Shown piece after piece: positions 39,896 through 49,590 of a stretch of 64,000 nucleotides of DNA. The stretch comes from Candidatus Undinarchaeota archaeon (GTDB lineage: Archaea > SpSt-1190 > JASMDC01). The stretch lies in contig CAZFHY010000004.1 in the NCBI GenBank assembly GCA_964519305.1, positions 32,001 to 96,000 on the forward strand. The letters run 5' to 3'. Every line of letters begins with the position of its first letter. The stretch's first letter is position 1. The notes below the pieces were generated by a model, which was given only the letters and a program-made list of their open reading frames with translations, made no database searches and was not told where the DNA came from. Both the position numbers and the translations under genes were made by a program.

Positions 39896-39952
39896 CCAGC
39901 TTCGGAGACCTCACCCCAATCCCTTTAAACCTTGACGCACACGGCCAGCACC

Positions 39953-42244
39953 GTGAACATCCTCGGGGTGTCCTTCAAAGCCCATGACAGATCGGCATGC
40001 ATCGTCCGCGATGGTCATGTGTTGGCCGCAGTGGAGGAGGAGCGGCTCAATAGGGACAAGCACACCGGCCACTTCCCCAAGAACTCCATCTTCGAGGTAC
40101 TGCGCCTGGCAGGGCTCACTCCCGATGATATCGACCTCGTCGCATATGGGGGTGAGGGGGCACGACCCATCGAACCTCCGCACCGCAGGTCCCGGGCTCA
40201 GCTAGCATCACTGTTCACCACGAACGTTCGTCTTCGCAATCAGGAGGAAGTGGACCGGATCCGGACTTTCTTTGCGGGCGAGCGTTCCAAACCGGTCGAG
40301 GTGGCCGCTGTCGACCATGAGACGGCACACTTGGCTTCAGCGGCCCTGTGCTCGGGATTCGATGGATGCACTGCTTTGGCTGTGGATGGGTATGGGGATG
40401 ATCGCTCGGCCGCCGTTGGCCGATGGGCTGACGGCTCCCTAGAGCTAGTAGCACCCTCCCCCCTACGCTCTTCCGTCGGGCTCGTGTACGGTTTGACTAC
40501 CCTCCTCCTCGGGCTGTCCATATGGCACGATGAGGGCAAGGTCACCGCCATGAGTTCGTTCCCGGGCGAGGTCCCGGATGGGATCGAACAACTATATGAG
40601 GCTCTCATGCCCCTTCCAAAAGAGGCAGAGCTGCAACCAACGGCCGAAGCCCTATTTGGGCTCCTTGATATTTCACCCGTCCCTCCCAGGGACCTGCGCA
40701 CTACACTCCATGGTTCGGAAGTGGTCCGACCCTCCCCCCGGTGGAGGCCGGAGCGCACGACGGAAGGGTATCTGTTACGACCTCCGTCCGGCAATCCATT
40801 GTCTGTAGAACCGCTCAAGGACGAGGAGTTCCGGGCACTATGGTACGTGCTCCGTCGCTCCCCCTCGGCACATGTTGATGAGGTCGTCCAGCTTGCCGCA
40901 CCTCTTGTTGGTATGAAGGACGAGGATGTTTGGGCCTGCCTCCTGCCCAGCGTCGAACTGCACAAGCGCCAAGGTGTGTTCTCGGCTTCCATGAGCGGTG
41001 GCCTGTCGCTCAGGCTCATCGAGCGTGACCACGCTGTGTACTCCCTGTGCGATGGGACGCGGACGACAACGAGCATTGCGGAGATGCTGGATATGGATGA
41101 AGGTGAGGTGCGGGACCTCGTTGAGTTCTCACCGCTCTGTCGCACTCTGTGGACGGGTGGTAACTCGTCCGGCGCCCCCGACACGGCAAGATTTGCGGAA
41201 AGGGCACTCAAAGCATTCCGGTCCTGGTACGACGCACGCGCAGTTGAGAAACCTCCCCTTGGGAAGCACAAAGGAACATTCATCGACGCCCCCGCGTACG
41301 CCGCGGTCCGAAGAGGGCTCTTTGAGAACACGACACGGCCTGCTGTGTCCAAGGCACTCCAGCGTAGGCTGGAGAAGGTGCTAACGTCGCTGGCGTCCCA
41401 AGCGGTCGAGCGCACGGGAGAGGCAAAGGTCGCCACCGCGGGAGGGGTGTTCCTCAATGTGCTGGCCAACATGAACATACGTCGACTGGATTGTGTCGAG
41501 GACCTGTTCATCCAACCTGCCGCAAGCGATGCAGGCACTTGTTTGGGTGCTGCGCTGTATGCTTGGCATCATCTGTGTCGCGAGGAGGGACAAAGACCCA
41601 CATCCCATCGCCTCGAGAGCGCATCCCTCGGCCCATCCTATACCGAGGACGATGTGCTGACGGCCCTCCGAGGGACACAGGGAATCACTTGGGATGCAAC
41701 TGACGATATGGCGGGTACAGCTGCGGACCTTGCTGCGGGAGGTGCTATTGTCGGTTGGTTCGAGGGACGAATGGAGTTCGGCCCTCGCGCCCTCGGCAAC
41801 CGTTCCGTGCTCGCCGATCCCGCTAACGCATCCACCAAGGACCGTATCAACCTCCTCCTCAAGGGCAGGGAATGGTACCAACCGTTCTGTCCCAGCCTCC
41901 CCCTGGCGCGGGCAGAAGAGTATCTGGTGGAAGGGCGGGAGGCGCCGTTCATGATCGAGGCCTATGATGTGCGTGCTGAGAAACGTGGTGAGATCCCGGC
42001 CGTCGTCCATGTCGATGGCACGACCCGGCCTCAGACAGTGCGGCGGGACCTACAGCCCGCCTACCACAGGGTGCTCACCGAGCTTGAGTCCCACACAGGT
42101 ATCCCCGTCGTGCTCAATACGTCCTTCAACATCCATGGTGAACCGATCGTGTGCACACCCCGGGATGCGCTCTCGGTGCTGGTCAGGCGTGGAGTGGACG
42201 TCCTTGTGATGGAGGGCTTCGTTGTCCGACGGACCAAGGACTAG
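39953..42244 (+). CDS. NodU/CmcH-family O-carbamoyltransferase with a large internal insertion (PqqD/RRE-like)
   Basis: HDRSA, EEERLNR.KH, HETAH, DGYGD, AGGVFLN, SDAG, EFGPRALGNRS, HVDGTTR, NTSFN.HGEP. Confidence 0.92.
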   Translation: MNILGVSFKAHDRSACIVRDGHVLAAVEEERLNRDKHTGHFPKNSIFEVLRLAGLTPDDIDLVAYGGEGARPIEPPHRRSRAQLASLFTTNVRLRNQEEVDRIRTFFAGERSKPVEVAAVDHETAHLASAALCSGFDGCTALAVDGYGDDRSAAVGRWADGSLELVAPSPLRSSVGLVYGLTTLLLGLSIWHDEGKVTAMSSFPGEVPDGIEQLYEALMPLPKEAELQPTAEALFGLLDISPVPPRDLRTTLHGSEVVRPSPRWRPERTTEGYLLRPPSGNPLSVEPLKDEEFRALWYVLRRSPSAHVDEVVQLAAPLVGMKDEDVWACLLPSVELHKRQGVFSASMSGGLSLRLIERDHAVYSLCDGTRTTTSIAEMLDMDEGEVRDLVEFSPLCRTLWTGGNSSGAPDTARFAERALKAFRSWYDARAVEKPPLGKHKGTFIDAPAYAAVRRGLFENTTRPAVSKALQRRLEKVLTSLASQAVERTGEAKVATAGGVFLNVLANMNIRRLDCVEDLFIQPAASDAGTCLGAALYAWHHLCREEGQRPTSHRLESASLGPSYTEDDVLTALRGTQGITWDATDDMAGTAADLAAGGAIVGWFEGRMEFGPRALGNRSVLADPANASTKDRINLLLKGREWYQPFCPSLPLARAEEYLVEGREAPFMIEAYDVRAEKRGEIPAVVHVDGTTRPQTVRRDLQPAYHRVLTELESHTGIPVVLNTSFNIHGEPIVCTPRDALSVLVRRGVDVLVMEGFVVRRTKD

Positions 42245-42697: not shown

Positions 42698-43486
42698 TCA
42701 CCCGTACTTGAAGCTGAAGGACAGGGCATCCTTGGGACACACATCGATGCACCGTCCGCAGCGGATACACTCTCCCGTGGGTACTGTCCGATGACCGCGA
42801 CGGATAGAGTCCTCAATGACGAGGATGTCCATGGGACACTCGCGCTGGCAGACCATGCACTCGATGCATGTATCCTCATCAACCAATACGCGGAACGCGC
42901 TCACCTTGTCCAAGATAGCGGCCAGCCCCCCGAGCGGACAGATCGATTTGCACCAGAACCGTCGATGATAGATTATCACGAAGAGCGCAGATATGAAGGT
43001 GATGGTCAGACCGGGGATCATGGCAAGGTCGAAGGTCTGAGGACCCGCGGTCCGGTACAGGGCACCGTACGGGCACACCTGGCAGAACACAGGATATCCA
43101 AAGACCATGGCCGCCCCTATGAAGACTGCCAAGAGCTCGTACTTGAAGGAATAGCCCTGTAGGATGCGTGGAGGACTGCGCTCCCTGACGGGGAGCTTGA
43201 GCGCGTTCGCGGCGCTCATGATGGTGCCGAACGGACAAACCCATCCACACCACACACGTCCGAAGACGATCACGAAGAGCGTGAATCCACCAACTAGTAA
43301 TGTGAGGCGGGAGAAGCCGCGGATAGTACCAGCATCAAAGGCCTCGTCGAAAAGACCTGAACCTATAGCGCCCGCTACCTGCTGTACACCGATGAACGGA
43401 CAGTACCGTGCGATCCCACCGAGAATTAATACGGCGATGAGGAGGAATATCGCCTGGATCGGCCGACGGTACGTTTGGACGGTCAT
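42698..43486 (-). CDS. NapH/MauN-type membrane polyferredoxin
   Basis: RVWCGWVCPFG, FCQVCPYG, RFWCKSICPLG, two CxxCxxCxxxCP motifs. Confidence 0.9.
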   Translation of the reverse strand: MTVQTYRRPIQAIFLLIAVLILGGIARYCPFIGVQQVAGAIGSGLFDEAFDAGTIRGFSRLTLLVGGFTLFVIVFGRVWCGWVCPFGTIMSAANALKLPVRERSPPRILQGYSFKYELLAVFIGAAMVFGYPVFCQVCPYGALYRTAGPQTFDLAMIPGLTITFISALFVIIYHRRFWCKSICPLGGLAAILDKVSAFRVLVDEDTCIECMVCQRECPMDILVIEDSIRRGHRTVPTGECIRCGRCIDVCPKDALSFSFKYG

Positions 43487-44112
43487 GAGCGCACCACCTT
43501 ACGATCACTGGGCTTCAGAACGAGCACATCTGTCGGACAAACGTTCACGCAATGGCCACATCCCCTGCAGAAGTCCTCAAGGCGGGCGGTCTCACGTTCC
43601 AACGCGCCTTCCGAGATGGGCTCAAGGAGCTTGCGGTAGCGCATTACCTGCTCACCTTTCCCGGTAAGGTCGTTCTCAACGACCGTGTAGGGACAGGCCT
43701 CGTCGCATCGGTCACATTTGATACACCGCTCGGGATGGGCGAGAAACGCGGTGCCCAGCTTCGGTTGTCTACCGCTCTGCTGAAGTCCGGTCACGGTCCC
43801 GAGGTCGAGCACCTGGGTCGGACAGACCTCATTGCACTCATAACAGAACGTGCACGGACCCGGTTGGCCCGTAACGCGCGGTAGTCCGACCTCTTCTATC
43901 GGACCGGCAGACACGAGCTCAATAGCCTTGGTCGGACAGACCTGGGCGCACTGGCCACACCTGAGACAGAGGAGAGTTAACTGGCGAGGCTCCACGGCGC
44001 CGGGCGGACGTACATCTGTACCATTGCCCGTGGGTGGCGCCAGGGAGAGCGCCGCCGCCAGCGCAGCCCCGTACCCGAGAGCGGACCGCAGGAAGTCGCG
44101 TCGGTCGGCCAT
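43483..44112 (-). CDS. NapG/MauM-type Tat-exported 4x[4Fe-4S] ferredoxin
   Basis: DRRDFLR Tat motif, RPPGA, four CxxCxxCxxxCP motifs. Confidence 0.9.
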   Translation of the reverse strand: MADRRDFLRSALGYGAALAAALSLAPPTGNGTDVRPPGAVEPRQLTLLCLRCGQCAQVCPTKAIELVSAGPIEEVGLPRVTGQPGPCTFCYECNEVCPTQVLDLGTVTGLQQSGRQPKLGTAFLAHPERCIKCDRCDEACPYTVVENDLTGKGEQVMRYRKLLEPISEGALERETARLEDFCRGCGHCVNVCPTDVLVLKPSDRKVVRS

Positions 44113-44113
44113 T

Positions 44114-44554
44114 TCACACAAACCTCCCATCGTTCTTCAGATCATCGATGGCGCTCATGATGGGGAGCCCGAGAGGGCATGCCTGCTCACAGAGCCCGCA
44201 CCTTACGCATAGACGGGCCGCCTCCCGCACAGGCATGGCATGCTTTCCGTCCACTTGACCTGGTAGGTCAGGATTGTTCGTGCGCGCTGCGACAACGAAC
44301 CGCGAGGGATCGAGCCCCCGAGGGCAGACTGGCCGGCAGGCCTGGCACTCGTAGCAGGTGAGCGCCCACATATGACGTGTGCGCAATGCCTTCACCGCAT
44401 TGCTGCCAAGGAGGACCGCGAGAGCAAGAGAGGCCATGACGTTCCGCCTGACCTCATCAACGGGCATGGTAACGGTCCGTCGGGCTCGACGTCCAACGAA
44501 ACCTGCCACTCCCGCGCTCGCCGCCAGCAGCACCGCGATAATGACAGGTTCCAT
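44114..44554 (-). CDS. Membrane-anchored HdrC-like 2x[4Fe-4S] protein
   Basis: Two hydrophobic segments; CYECQACRPVCP and CVRCGLCEQACP. Confidence 0.85.
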   Translation of the reverse strand: MEPVIIAVLLAASAGVAGFVGRRARRTVTMPVDEVRRNVMASLALAVLLGSNAVKALRTRHMWALTCYECQACRPVCPRGLDPSRFVVAARTNNPDLPGQVDGKHAMPVREAARLCVRCGLCEQACPLGLPIMSAIDDLKNDGRFV

Positions 44555-44716: not shown

Positions 44717-45457
44717 TCACCCCGAAAGGGTTCCGTTGGATATCAGTAGCATTATGAGGGCGGTCACAGCCGTCATCAACAGGATGCCCGCCTGCTGGGC
44801 CCTGGTGCTGGCACCTGGTTCGAGCCCAAGCTCACCCTCGCCCACGGCAGCGATCCCGCCGAGGCGTGAGGGGGCACAGGACGCGGCGGCGTTGACGATG
44901 AAAGCGGCCACGAGCACGTGGGTCGCGAACGGAGCATGATCTGCAGCCCCTGTGGCAGCGATACCGGGCGTGAGGACTTCGTTCCCGAACCTCACGACGC
45001 CCGGCAGGAAGGCCGCCGCAGTGATGCGGCCACAGGGCAATGGAATGAGCGCAGGTATGTTCGCTAACAGAACGGCCGTCCCGACCAGTCCCAGAGGTGT
45101 TGTCATCGCAAGCCTCTCGAGGACCTCGACCATCGCATCATATCCTCCTGCGAATCCCAGTGCACCCGCGGCCATGAAGCCACCGGTCATGGCCATGATG
45201 GGATGGAGCATTATCCCTGCCAAGAGGTCAGCAAGCGTCGCCTCCGATACCACCAGCATGAACAATGCTAGTGCCACCAGAACGGTCTGAATAGGGATCG
45301 GAGGAGGTGCCACCTGGGCGTACGCGAGCGTCGTTGCGAACACCAACAGGCAGATGTACCCTGTCCTGAGGTGCTTATCGTCGATGCGGGAACGGATGAT
45401 CACCAGGGCCACAGCAATCCAGACAACCGCTCCGATTAAAGGAATAGAGAGATCCAT
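44717..45457 (-). CDS. Multi-pass membrane protein with PCGR and NAAASCAPS motifs (paralog B)
   Basis: Hydrophobic 246 aa; clear paralog of 45462..46148. Confidence 0.85.
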   Translation of the reverse strand: MDLSIPLIGAVVWIAVALVIIRSRIDDKHLRTGYICLLVFATTLAYAQVAPPPIPIQTVLVALALFMLVVSEATLADLLAGIMLHPIMAMTGGFMAAGALGFAGGYDAMVEVLERLAMTTPLGLVGTAVLLANIPALIPLPCGRITAAAFLPGVVRFGNEVLTPGIAATGAADHAPFATHVLVAAFIVNAAASCAPSRLGGIAAVGEGELGLEPGASTRAQQAGILLMTAVTALIMLLISNGTLSG

Positions 45458-45461
45458 TACC

Positions 45462-46148
45462 TTATCGCCCTCCTGCCTTCAGGGGCGCAAGCCGCCCGAG
45501 GACCACTGCAGTAAAAGCGGTCCCCGCCATTATTCCCGCGCGTAGAGGGTCCGAGAAAGCACCGACAGGCTGACCGGTCATGCCCTCACCAATCATTCCT
45601 AGGCCCCCTAAGATTGAAGGTGCACATGATGCGGCGGCATTGACCGTGAAAGCGAACACAACGACCGCTACTAAGCGATCGTCACCCTGACGTTCTGCGA
45701 CTGCCCGACCGAGGAAGAGTGCGGCCGGGAGCAGCGCGGCACCAAGTATTCGGCCACAGGGGAGGGCGATTATGGCGGGCGAATTGACGAGCAGGACCAC
45801 CACTCCTGGAAGGCCGAATACTTCCATCCCACCGATCTTGAACGAGGCGAGCCGGTCAAGGGCATCCACCAGTGCCTCGAAGGCACCGGAAACTTCCAGG
45901 CCACCAACTACCAGGAATCCGGCTATCAGAGCTGTGATGGGATGGAGCTGGATGGAAGCTAATAGGTCCGCAGGAGTGATGGTGCGCGCCAGTCCCTGAC
46001 GAGCACCTACTACGGAGATGAGCACAATAAGGAGCGTCACACCGAGCAACGCCGTATGAATGGGTATATGGTTCTGAGGGATGATCCCCTTCAATGAGAG
46101 AACGATGGTCGCGAGGAACAGAGCGAGCGCAAGGTATCCGACGATCAT
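45462..46148 (-). CDS. Multi-pass membrane protein with PCGR and NAAASCAPS motifs (paralog A)
   Basis: Hydrophobic 228 aa; ATGA overlap with the HdrB-like gene. Confidence 0.85.
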   Translation of the reverse strand: MIVGYLALALFLATIVLSLKGIIPQNHIPIHTALLGVTLLIVLISVVGARQGLARTITPADLLASIQLHPITALIAGFLVVGGLEVSGAFEALVDALDRLASFKIGGMEVFGLPGVVVLLVNSPAIIALPCGRILGAALLPAALFLGRAVAERQGDDRLVAVVVFAFTVNAAASCAPSILGGLGMIGEGMTGQPVGAFSDPLRAGIMAGTAFTAVVLGRLAPLKAGGR

Positions 46149-46978
46149 ATCATCCCCTCCTCGGCCGCTTTCCGGGCAGCACGGCGCTCCTTGGCCTCGT
46201 TGACCACACGTTCGAGGTTCTTTGTGAAGTCGTCCATACCGAATGCCACCAAGAAGGCCAATGATACGACCTTCATGTTCGCAGCTGCTTTGCGCAGGGC
46301 AGGATCGGTATCTTCGTCAGCCACCACTTCCGCGAGAGCTTCGCTCAGGGAAATCTCGCATCGGGGGCAGGCGGTCACGATTAGGTCGGCCTTGGTCGCC
46401 AGGGCATTACGTATCTTGCTGGAGCGTAAGGATGTGGCCACTTCAGGATCACTCGCCCGGAGGCCTCCAGAGCCGCCGCAACAGGACTCGGCCTCCTCCA
46501 TTTCGATAACCTCAAGGCCACGAATAGCGTCAAGGACATCCCTCATGACCGCATTGTCCACACCCATCCCCCGGTTGAGATGGCAAGGATAATGAACGGT
46601 AACTCGAGCGTTCACCTCTCCGAGCCCGCTCTTGCGGAGGAACTCCATTTTCTCAGGAAGTAGTTCGATGAAATGGGTGACCTCGATACCTCTTCGTGCT
46701 ACGTCCGCAGAATCCATGAGCGCGGTCCCGCAACCAGGGCATGACACCAGTACTTCGTCCACAGGACCTTGCAATCGACCCCAGCCACTGACGGAGATGT
46801 TGATGAGCTTGTCCTTTGCTGCCATATCGCCGATGAACGATGACGGTCTCCCACAACAGATGTCCCTGGGGGGTTCGGTCACTTCAATCCCGAGCTTCTT
46901 CAGAAGGTATCGTACCGCATATCTTGTGTCAAGTAGCTGGAGCCCGTAGAAACAACCGTCGAAGACCAGGCGTTGCAT
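46145..46978 (-). CDS. CCG-domain Fe-S protein (HdrB/GlpC-like)
   Basis: GC...CCG...CPGC and YPCH...CCGGSGG...TACPRC: two CCG domains. Confidence 0.88.
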   Translation of the reverse strand: MQRLVFDGCFYGLQLLDTRYAVRYLLKKLGIEVTEPPRDICCGRPSSFIGDMAAKDKLINISVSGWGRLQGPVDEVLVSCPGCGTALMDSADVARRGIEVTHFIELLPEKMEFLRKSGLGEVNARVTVHYPCHLNRGMGVDNAVMRDVLDAIRGLEVIEMEEAESCCGGSGGLRASDPEVATSLRSSKIRNALATKADLIVTACPRCEISLSEALAEVVADEDTDPALRKAAANMKVVSLAFLVAFGMDDFTKNLERVVNEAKERRAARKAAEEGMI

Positions 46979-47763
46979 TACGATCCCTCCAAAGACCTTG
47001 TCGAACGCTTCCGTCCTCCAGTGCCCTTCTTCGCAGACCTTTTCGAGGCTTTCTTCTTCACTGATTTCTTTGAACGATCGCTCTTCGAGTTCTTTTTCGG
47101 CTCCACTGTCTCTTTCTCGGCAACCGTACGTTCAGGCTCTGTATCAGCGGTCCCGTCGTTAGTATCGTCAGGCCTGTCCTTGTCGAGCGTCGTTTCCGGA
47201 CCGTCCGCTGACGAGACCTCTTGTTCTTTTTCTTCAAGGTGTCGCTCAAGCTGTCGTGCGCTCCTTAGGATGGACCGGGCCTGCGATGCAGGATCGGGTC
47301 GGCTCTTGATCTCGCCGAGGACGTTCCTTGCTTTTTCTAGCCTTTCGAGTAGTTTTACCTGACCATCGGTCGCCCCATCCTTACCGAACCGGATACCTCT
47401 ACCTGCGAGCACCATTGCTTCAGCGTCCAGTCCTCGAGGGCATCGTTCCACGCAGTTACGACATGTAGAACAAATATGGAGCCCTCCAGCCATTATCCGC
47501 GCGTCATGTCCAGCACGGAGCGAGCGCATGACCTCGGCAGGCCCTATGAATGTGGCCCTGCCCTCCCCTTCCTTGTTATCGATCTCTTTTGCGATAGCCA
47601 CTACAGGACATACTGCAGTACATTGACGACAGTCGGTGCATAACAGGGTCCTTGAGACCTCGCGGAAGATGGCCGAGAGGATAAGGAGGGTCGGTACTGT
47701 CATCAGGAGGAGTGCGACACCCCCGTGCAGTGCCGTGGGCCCTCCCGGGAGAAAGGAGACCAT
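46978..47763 (-). CDS. HdrC-like 2x[4Fe-4S] protein with N-terminal TM and Lys-rich tail
   Basis: CTDCRQCTAVCP, CSTCRNCVERCPRG; its TAA overlaps the next ATG. Confidence 0.85.
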   Translation of the reverse strand: MVSFLPGGPTALHGGVALLLMTVPTLLILSAIFREVSRTLLCTDCRQCTAVCPVVAIAKEIDNKEGEGRATFIGPAEVMRSLRAGHDARIMAGGLHICSTCRNCVERCPRGLDAEAMVLAGRGIRFGKDGATDGQVKLLERLEKARNVLGEIKSRPDPASQARSILRSARQLERHLEEKEQEVSSADGPETTLDKDRPDDTNDGTADTEPERTVAEKETVEPKKNSKSDRSKKSVKKKASKRSAKKGTGGRKRSTRSLEGS

Positions 47764-49170: not shown

Positions 49171-49590
49171 ATGACCGTTCATGCCGAGGACTTCTCTATC
49201 GAGACCAAGGGGGCTGTCCACATAATCGATATCAGCGGCAAGGTCGCCGACATCGTACGCTCGTCCGGACTGGACGATGGTATAGTATGTGTGTTCGTTC
49301 CCGGATCCACCGGTGCTCTCACGACCATCGAGTACGAACCCGGTCTCCTCAAGGATATCCCACGGGCGCTCGAGGTAATAGCCCCACGAAAAGCGGATTA
49401 CGCACACCATATGACCTGGGGGGACGACAACGGCTCTTCCCACGTCAGGGCCGCCTTCCTTGGACCAAGCCTCACCATCCCATTCCGCAAGGGTGAGCTC
49501 GTTCTTGGTACATGGCAACAAGCTGTGTTCGTCGAACTTGATACCCGCTCCAGACGTCGAAGTCTCGTGTGTCAGGTCATCGGCGAATAG
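49171..49590 (+). CDS. yjbQ: YjbQ/UPF0047 family protein
   Basis: GSTGALTTIEYE, YAHH...DNGSSHVRA, LGTWQ, ELD. Confidence 0.93.
   Translation: MTVHAEDFSIETKGAVHIIDISGKVADIVRSSGLDDGIVCVFVPGSTGALTTIEYEPGLLKDIPRALEVIAPRKADYAHHMTWGDDNGSSHVRAAFLGPSLTIPFRKGELVLGTWQQAVFVELDTRSRRRSLVCQVIGE

Follow-up and report, generated by a model that had tools for sequence, protein, structure and literature searches.

A two-part membrane protein of ion-transporter fold with four invariant cysteines, encoded among iron-sulfur proteins in archaea and bacteria, and its proposed redox role

We analyzed a 64,000-nt stretch from the genome of a Candidatus Undinarchaeota archaeon (contig 4, 32001-96000); this whole stretch is the window, and coordinates given below without a contig or locus name follow its numbering. 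Two adjacent genes in it encode MemA and MemB, the halves of a membrane protein, Mem. Judged by its sequences, Mem is a real and strongly conserved feature that belongs to a known fold class and combines a four-cysteine site with iron-sulfur synteny, and we propose a redox function for it. MemAB may be the membrane core, of ion-transporter (IT) fold, in an electron-transfer complex built entirely of iron-sulfur proteins, where electrons would cross the membrane by way of an iron-sulfur cluster held at its middle by four cysteines. This reading is tentative, with a probability of about 0.38. The two halves are:

MemA: 46148-45462, minus strand; 228 aa, the A half; codon of C131 at 45756-45758 (in PCGR), codon of C175 at 45624-45626 (in NAAASC).
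MemB: 45457-44717, minus strand; 246 aa, the B half; codon of C142 at 45032-45034, codon of C194 at 44876-44878.

The two open reading frames (ORFs) fill 44717-46148, with 4 nt between them. MemA and MemB are paralogs, their similarity being far beyond chance: BLASTP aligned them at 41% identity over 222 columns (E 3e-29), bearing out the paralogous membrane pair of a first-pass annotation of this DNA. The three motifs quoted there, LHPI.A...GF, N.PA.I.LPCGRI..AA.LP and VNAAASCAPS.LGG....GEG, are all visible in both proteins in that alignment. MemA contains two cysteines in total, C131 and C175, and MemB three, the motif cysteines C142 and C194 plus C36. No Pfam or NCBIfam family matched either protein at E <= 0.1.

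Word-indexed searches returned 25 and 57 relatives, and a profile run against 1.84 billion representative proteins returned 69 clusters, all of the same Mem family and none from a named family. A full-text literature search, which covered listings and text passages, found no description of the family. Among the sequencing runs listed, none of RNA contained the Mem locus. Among species-representative genomes there were 51 Mem loci. The archaeal carriers are labeled Thermoplasmata, Altiarchaeota, Hydrothermarchaeota, Halobacteriota and Methanomassiliicoccales, together with an Undinarchaeales-labeled relative (90% identity); the bacterial carriers are labeled Spirochaetota, Coatesbacteria, Planctomycetota, Desulfomonilaceae, Desulfovibrio and Clostridia.

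The two conserved cysteines that had been annotated in each half are invariant in every alignment we made: in 16 of 16 sequences of alignment A1, in 22 of 22 A-type sequences (A4) and in 38 of 38 B-type sequences (A3), and the 36 fused proteins of alignment A2 all keep the four cysteines. A pattern scan of 66 Mem ORFs from the 51 loci found both cysteine motifs in 97 of 100 halves. The three misses were misses of the pattern: the cysteines are present by alignment A2 in loci L049 and L053, and the third locus is also in A2. Lack of conservation among homologs, named in the first-pass annotation as the result that would tell against its idea, was looked for, and the cysteines proved to be conserved at the 51 loci. 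The residues that follow the two cysteines, Arg at the first and Ser at the second, are likewise invariant or nearly so, as is the GEG glutamate.

A and B form a single ORF, of about 420-600 aa, at 34 of the 51 loci; at 15 more they are neighboring genes with A preceding B, so we regard A and B as one unit. Fusion linkers are hydrophilic and K/E-rich, 25-90 residues long, and contain no hydrophobic segment. With 34 fusions, 15 adjacent pairs and 2 lone B copies, the 51 loci behave as expected of an obligate A+B unit. The two lone B halves, which have no A half, lie by NapH and a ferredoxin (L055:5983-6708 and L057:4401-5126), and both genomes also hold a full A+B locus. A lone B half would need a partner from another locus, or dual topology.

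The fold was modeled with AlphaFold2 on the fused altiarchaeal protein of locus L027 (440 aa; 43% identity to MemA and 48% to MemB). The model reached a predicted local distance difference score (pLDDT) of 84.8 and a predicted template-modeling score (pTM) of 0.87. Structure comparison by Foldseek, with a VIA second look, gave the following matches, listed with residues aligned and root-mean-square deviation (rmsd):

ArsB (10tp_A): Z 23.8, 391 of 440 aligned, rmsd 4.3.
NaCT: Z 23.8, 394 aligned, rmsd 4.2.
NaS1: Z 22.8, 412 aligned, rmsd 4.5.
Pho90: Z 22.3, 396 aligned, rmsd 4.7.
VcINDY: Z about 22, 389-401 aligned, rmsd 4.4-4.6.
TRAP SiaQM: Z 19.5, 380 aligned, rmsd 4.4.
YdaH: Z 17.1, 395 aligned, rmsd 4.8.

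Independently, the language-model Atlas listed DcuA/B, CitMHS, MatC and DctM clusters. Each half of the L027 model begins with three helices and a short amphipathic helix, which are followed by a helix-loop-helix, a broken helix and a last helix. The marks of the IT superfamily at fold level are therefore present, namely a helix-loop-helix and a broken helix in both halves, with Z scores of 17-24 over 380-412 of the 440 residues. Prediction and the gene fusions together establish the fold of MemAB as the IT superfamily elevator fold of two inverted halves. The split IT-like fold that had been suspected is supported by the fusions and by the Z scores of 22-24 to ArsB, NaCT and VcINDY. The Foldseek comparison suggested in the first-pass annotation was positive for IT proteins, DASS and TRAP among them, and found a scaffold different from that of Rnf.

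Sequence comparison did not recover this relationship. A profile of the fused proteins had no matches among PDB sequences at E <= 10 (hmmsearch), hhalign against Escherichia coli ArsB gave a probability of 5%, and PF02040 (ArsB) did not match MemA or MemB. Matches of fused or long homologs to CitMHS were weak (E 0.02-0.72, all below cut-off), leaving Mem outside CitMHS, ArsB, DcuA/B and DctM at the sequence level. The isolated MemB half does not fold convincingly when modeled: its pLDDT was 71.6, and among 48,161 chains the best Z was 6.7 (Pho90 had Z 6.5 with rmsd 7.8), none above noise.

In the L027 model two cysteines lie at hairpin tips, C121 in the loop between helices 102-117 and 122-144, and C348 in the loop between helices 329-343 and 349-371. 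The other two lie in breaks of discontinuous helices, C165 between helices 148-163 and 173-181, and C392 between helices 376-390 and 400-408. AlphaFold2 places MemB C142 in a loop (138-142) flanked by helices 123-137 and 143-169, and C194 at a break (194-201) flanked by helices 172-193 and 202-209. Passages of PMC13381914 describe ArsB as having 10 transmembrane (TM) helices and two hairpins, with both termini periplasmic, a cytoplasmic linker, and a single small pocket enclosed by HP1, L1, HP2 and L2; one As(OH)3 molecule in that pocket has N111/D112, N158, N337 and S380/A382 within 4 A. The Mem cysteines of L027 are spaced 44/183/44 residues apart vs 47/179/43 for the ArsB ligands N111, N158, N337 and S380, an equivalence of secondary-structure position and spacing, not of residue-level structural alignment. 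Given the shared fold and these ArsB-like positions and spacing, we infer that the four cysteines line one central mid-membrane pocket. Co-folding of MemA, MemB and TMFer (a neighboring ferredoxin, see below) with three 4Fe-4S ligands scored 0.13 and 0.19 against a mark of 0.32, and weighs neither way.

ArsB (PDB 10tp), an arsenite/antimonite:H+ antiporter, is the best structural match of L027 and, in the description cited, has the plan predicted for Mem: 10 TM helices and 2 hairpins with a single pocket, a linker on the cytoplasmic side and both termini on the outside. It differs in its ligands, which are Asn and Ser there, whereas Mem has four Cys and two Arg; the ArsB residues N111, N158, N337 and S380 were not found in Mem, whose loops carry PCGR and NAAASCGPS. 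It differs also in that Mem is split into two genes in the window and at 14 other loci, and in that Mem neighbors iron-sulfur proteins, not ars genes. DASS/SLC13 proteins (VcINDY, NaCT, NaS1) and TRAP DctM/SiaQM have the same elevator fold (Z 19-24), with re-entrant hairpin and broken helix. The Ser-Asn-Thr hairpin tip of DASS was not found in Mem; every aligned sequence has (A/L)(M/L)PCGR at the tips.

In several A-type homologs the first helix is preceded by a signal peptide and an extracellular domain, which places the N-terminus of A outside, and charge bias agrees. The segment from TM3 to the hairpin has a K+R count of 3.32 in A-type and 0.92 in B-type sequences, and the segment after the hairpin has a net charge of +1.14 in A-type and -1.45 in B-type sequences; the fused set also shows opposite charge in equivalent loops of A and B. 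With five crossings per half, these data support A and B halves inverted as in ArsB, N-terminus out, linker in and C-terminus out. MemA is thus predicted to have its N-terminus outside and its C-terminus inside, with MemB inverted relative to it. Among the Thermoplasmata, A-type halves (P0085, P0090, P0007, P0008; loci L010, L011, L018, L020) bear N-terminal extracellular extensions of 145-510 aa that start with a signal peptide, and some of these hold a beta-helix/NosD-like domain (PF13229, 9.6e-15).

The BLASTP alignment of the halves begins at residue 33 of MemB and residue 4 of MemA, and AlphaFold2 predicts an extra N-terminal helix at MemB residues 4-23. The first-pass annotation had seen in this helix what would allow inverted topology. 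The helix is real in MemB; as the cause of inversion it is ruled out. It is kept only in a same-genus relative (93% identity) and was not found in B-type homologs outside the genus, and fused forms have a linker without a TM helix. It would place the MemB N-terminus outside, leaving the orientation of the core unchanged.

The Mem genes lie in a tightly packed operon, in the order HdrC-like, HdrB-like, MemA, MemB, TMFer, NapG-like and NapH-like. The genes around Mem are:

HdrC-like 2x[4Fe-4S] ferredoxin: 46978..47763, minus strand; 261 aa; Pfam Fer4_8 7e-10, Fer4_17 1.4e-7; weak NCBIfam matches of HdrC/GlpC type.
HdrB-like protein with two CCG domains: 46145..46978, minus strand; 277 aa; Pfam CCG 1.5e-28 in 2 stretches; no signal peptide.
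TMFer, an HdrC-type ferredoxin: 44114..44554, minus strand; 146 aa from the first ATG, 117 aa from 44467; Fer4_17 1.3e-11, Fer4_8 1.4e-9.
NapG-like 4x[4Fe-4S] ferredoxin: 43483..44130, minus strand; 215 aa; twin-arginine signal RRDFLRS; Fer4_7 1.8e-19 in 4 stretches.
NapH-like membrane polyferredoxin: 42698..43486, minus strand; 262 aa; CX3CP motifs and a C-terminal 2x[4Fe-4S]; NapH/MauN 7e-35, below cut-off; Fer4_5 1.3e-15.

The stop of the HdrB-like gene overlaps the MemA start by 4 nt. The HdrB-like protein matched NCBIfam TfrB (1.1e-39), LdhH, GlcF and HdrB, all under equivalog cut-offs, and the NapG-like protein matched NCBIfam NapG (5.5e-20) and NapF (1.7e-18), below cut-offs. Pfam and NCBIfam scans of the operon proteins detected no haem or quinone-type membrane subunit.

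On which side of the membrane the partners lie can be predicted from their N-termini. The window HdrC-like protein has a membrane helix at residues 16-32, with 0 K/R in its N-tail, 3 K/R after the helix and the first cluster motif about 9 residues after it. Across loci the HdrC-like proteins have the same design, with an N-tail lacking K/R, R/K directly past the helix and the first CxxCxxC 8-10 residues later. Because of the K/R-free tail and the short distance from helix to motif, the cluster domain is predicted to be cytoplasmic, pressed to the membrane beside the signal-less HdrB. The C-terminus of the window HdrC-like protein is a low-complexity K/E/S-rich tail of about 100 residues, unusual for HdrC.

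TMFer of the window has a twin-arginine motif, VRRNV, ahead of its hydrophobic segment. In the TMFer family (alignment A5) a basic pair is present in 22 of 22 sequences, a true RR in 12 of 22, and an invariant Asn follows the pair; the cluster motif starts about 10 residues past the helix. Spirochaete TMFer has KK in place of RR. A neighboring ferredoxin in Thermoplasmata matches the twin-arginine translocation signal model, and the window genome encodes TatC. The cluster domain of TMFer and the NapG-like protein are accordingly predicted to lie outside the cell membrane, and paralogous HdrC-type ferredoxins would thus sit on opposite faces of a pseudo-symmetric membrane protein. In altiarchaeal TMFer (e.g., L022:7651-8127) the second CxxCxxCxxxCP lacks its first two cysteines, with C48 and C93 (numbered from 44467) still invariant; one TMFer cluster site may be incomplete, or another subunit may complete it.

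The same kinds of neighbor recur across the 51 loci, of which 31 are archaeal-labeled and 20 bacterial-labeled:

HdrC/TMFer-type ferredoxin: 44/51; archaeal 26/31, bacterial 18/20.
Any iron-sulfur partner: 49/51; the two exceptions are contigs that break off.
HdrB-like: 27/51; archaeal 27/31, bacterial 0/20.
NapH-like: 25/51; archaeal 25/31, bacterial 0/20.
Small TM-anchored CxxC...SPCxxC protein: 28/51; archaeal 26/31, bacterial 2/20.
DsbD_2: 17/51; archaeal 6/31, bacterial 11/20.
RdhA-like (TIGR02486 5e-40, below cut-off): 10/51; archaeal 0/31, bacterial 10/20.
DUF59/FeS_assembly_P: 8/51; archaeal 0/31, bacterial 8/20.
SurA-like peptidyl-prolyl isomerase: 6/51; archaeal 0/31, bacterial 6/20.

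The small CxxC...SPCxxC protein is about 115-130 aa long, has one N-terminal membrane helix and is usually encoded directly upstream of Mem (examples are L010:1641-2021, L021:1016-1369 and L015:5158-5529). It belongs to no Pfam or NCBIfam family and is not encoded in the window; a homolog in the same genome (contig 6, L062:1489-1833, E 4.6e-14) adjoins a DsbD_2 gene (PF13386, 1.2e-22). One DsbD_2 locus has a weak ArsG-type match. Bacterial-labeled loci have one or two RdhA-like proteins (L042:4216-5601, L042:10424-12433, L024:1672-3585); in those inspected, the N-terminus has 2-3 TM helices, and a twin-arginine signal is absent. The RdhA-like proteins are of the 'hybrid' reductive dehalogenase type, which passages of PMC6797604 describe as having N-terminal TM helices and a predicted exoplasmic C-terminus. 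The DUF59 protein of L042, the one such sequence inspected, has an N-terminal membrane anchor. The bacterial set of RdhA-like, DUF59, DsbD_2 and SurA-like proteins resembles a kit for the maturation of an outward-facing enzyme and its supply with electrons.

On the reading we favor, the four cysteines, on hairpin tips 1 and 2 and helix breaks 1 and 2, would hold a redox-active iron-sulfur cluster that passes electrons between the cytoplasmic HdrC-like/HdrB module and the outer TMFer/NapG module; the alternating inward and outward states of the fold might assist the transfer. The first-pass annotation had likened the pair to RnfA/E, an idea that fits the abundance of iron-sulfur proteins among the neighbors and the prediction of ferredoxins at either face of the membrane. 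According to passages of PMC12174285, RnfA/E and NqrD/E are inverted paralogs whose half-helix cysteines bind a mid-membrane [2Fe-2S] cluster; the cluster is fed by a TM-tethered ferredoxin domain, with a switch between inward and outward states, and the cluster of Nqr is matured by NqrM, a small membrane protein. Mem is like these in its duplicated inverted paralogs, in its cysteines on interrupted helices, and in a TM-tethered inner ferredoxin and outer redox partner, as well as in the small Cys-bearing membrane protein encoded nearby (28/51 loci). It differs in family and fold, with halves of 5 TM helices and a hairpin instead of 6 TM helices, and in having HdrC-type ferredoxins, not flavoproteins, as partners. 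PF02508 (Rnf-Nqr) did not match MemA or MemB, and a genome-wide search with it gave two matches only, both on contig 10 and none at the Mem locus. These are the true RnfA and RnfE (contig 10, 70397-71583; PF02508 2e-64 and 2e-59), so this organism would have both a classical Rnf and a Mem system.

The cytoplasmic side of the operon has parallels in modules of HdrDE, DsrMK and HmeCD type, which also place a CCG protein and an HdrC-type ferredoxin at the cytoplasmic face by a membrane subunit of the same operon. Their membrane partner is a NarI-like haem-b protein that uses quinone or methanophenazine, whereas the Mem operon has a haem-free four-Cys protein of IT fold together with NapH. The other end of the operon recalls systems of NapGH/NosGH/PceC type, since it ends in the genes for the NapG-like protein, predicted to be exported, and the NapH-like protein; it differs from them in that the window operon encodes no nitrate, N2O or flavinylated partner, and in that NapH is found at 0 of 20 bacterial loci.

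Several points weigh against a Mem electron relay. NapH-like proteins have been proposed as transmembrane electron carriers (passages of PMC8238504), so Mem may not be needed as a wire in archaea, where 25 of 31 loci encode one; this objection does not reach the bacterial loci (NapH 0/20). HdrB and NapH are both missing from all 20 bacterial-labeled loci. DsbD_2 (17 loci) and a FeoB-associated-like Cys-rich peptide also fit transport of a cargo. Every solved protein in the fold-match lists is a transporter, and none has a cofactor. The convergence of the four cysteines is derived from fold equivalence, and the fold call from the fused homolog, since the MemB-alone model had no match above noise. 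The export route of spirochaete TMFer is uncertain, RR being true in 12 of 22 sequences only and KK in spirochaetes. All members of the Mem family come from metagenome-assembled genomes.

A more specific form of the relay, which we consider doubtful, is a 'redox elevator': an ArsB-like transport domain would permanently bear the cluster and present it in turn to the inner and the outer ferredoxin, so that electrons, possibly with a coupled ion, cross the membrane without haem, flavin or quinone. Anaerobes among the archaea and bacteria would then have arrived a second time, independently, at the principle of RnfA/E and NqrD/E. In a bolder variant the iron-sulfur cluster itself would be the cargo and would be exported.

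A genuine elevator transporter is the strongest competitor, though on our estimate a somewhat unlikely one. The cargo bound in its four-Cys pocket would be thiol-loving, for example Fe(II), a metalloid, an iron-sulfur cluster or the sulfur of a persulfide or polysulfide, and would be moved across the membrane to serve the iron-sulfur enzymes encoded nearby or would come from them. In the boldest form, exported clusters would serve to mature iron-sulfur proteins anchored to the membrane outside the cell. ArsB, DASS and TRAP transporters share this fold, and the Mem cysteines are at its cargo site. Bacterial loci add DsbD_2 (11/20), DUF59 (8/20), SurA-like (6/20) and RdhA-like (10/20) proteins, the exoplasmic C-terminus predicted for hybrid dehalogenases counts in its favor, and the KK of spirochaete TMFer also fits. 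The FeoB-associated-like peptide occurs in 5 loci (E 1e-4, below the Pfam cut-off), and 3 loci have genes for cysteine desulfurase and IscU-like proteins upstream. However, the 51 loci do not share a regulator, binding protein or resistance gene related to transport next to Mem, and the sole near-universal neighbor is an electron-transfer ferredoxin (44/51). The outer iron-sulfur proteins of the window and other archaeal loci carry twin-arginine signals and should therefore be loaded in the cytoplasm, and four thiolates would hold soft metals very tightly for a carrier.

A dithiol/disulfide relay like that of DsbD/CcdA, on a different fold and with cysteines exposed alternately to each side, is quite unlikely. 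Its reductant would be the HdrB module from inside or a small CxxC protein. HdrB-type CCG proteins are disulfide reductases, and one is encoded in the operon (1.5e-28); the first cysteine of each half follows Pro in PCGR. The small CxxC protein adjoins DsbD_2 elsewhere in the window genome and precedes Mem homologs at 28 of 51 loci, so Mem and DsbD_2 may use a similar partner. DsbD/CcdA resembles Mem in having inverted repeats and membrane-embedded cysteines that move reducing power across the membrane. It consists of two inverted 3-TM repeats with one Cys each, and a dithiol relay needs two cysteines, as in CcdA; Mem differs in fold and has four, invariant where two would do. HdrB is also absent from the 20 bacterial-labeled loci, Mem has conserved partners on either face that are not thioredoxin-like but iron-sulfur proteins of one-electron type, and 17 loci already encode DsbD_2. 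PF02683 and PF13386 did not match MemA or MemB at E <= 0.1, yet true DsbD_2 proteins were readily detected in the same scans (neighboring genes at 1.2e-19, contig 6 at 1.2e-22).

We hold it very unlikely that MemAB is an ion-translocating (H+/Na+) or structural subunit whose cysteines bind a structural metal (Zn) or sense redox state and carry no electrons. IT-fold proteins are ion-coupled, and an invariant Arg and a near-invariant GEG Glu stand beside the cysteines in each half; against this, four-Cys invariance across archaea and bacteria would sooner be expected of a catalytic or cofactor site, and the gene context has no pointer to zinc. Two further candidates were rejected: a dicarboxylate carrier for a TfrB-like thiol:fumarate reductase, as no flavoprotein partner is encoded and the cysteine site would be unexplained, and a YeeE-type sulfur carrier, for which there was no Pfam match of any kind.

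To our knowledge, the only known mid-membrane iron-sulfur centre is that of Rnf/Nqr. If the proposed electron relay is correct, Mem would hold a second such centre, on an unrelated transporter scaffold, and would show that secondary-transporter folds can become electron conduits. It would also explain how cytoplasmic Hdr-type chemistry is linked to exported iron-sulfur reductases in haem-poor, quinone-poor anaerobes, here Altiarchaeota, Thermoplasmata, the Undinarchaeales-labeled lineage, spirochaetes and Coatesbacteria; in bacteria the membrane-anchored 'hybrid' reductive dehalogenase homologs, so far unexplained, would be among those reductases. Even as a transporter, Mem would be an unannotated and very rare family (69 clusters in 1.84 billion) with a four-thiolate cargo site on an actively studied fold. 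For expression and spectroscopy, the fused proteins of bacteria and Altiarchaeota offer targets encoded by one gene.

The window genome (G000) is 3.63 Mb and 99.8% complete, and sampled genomes of the same class are 0.6-1.2 Mb, which makes the lineage unusually large for its label. Two further genes of the window look unrelated to the operon. A 770-aa carbamoyltransferase (39932-42244, plus strand; Carbam_trans_C, 8.7e-65) converges on it, and a UPF0047 protein (6.9e-33) is encoded at 49171-49590, plus strand.

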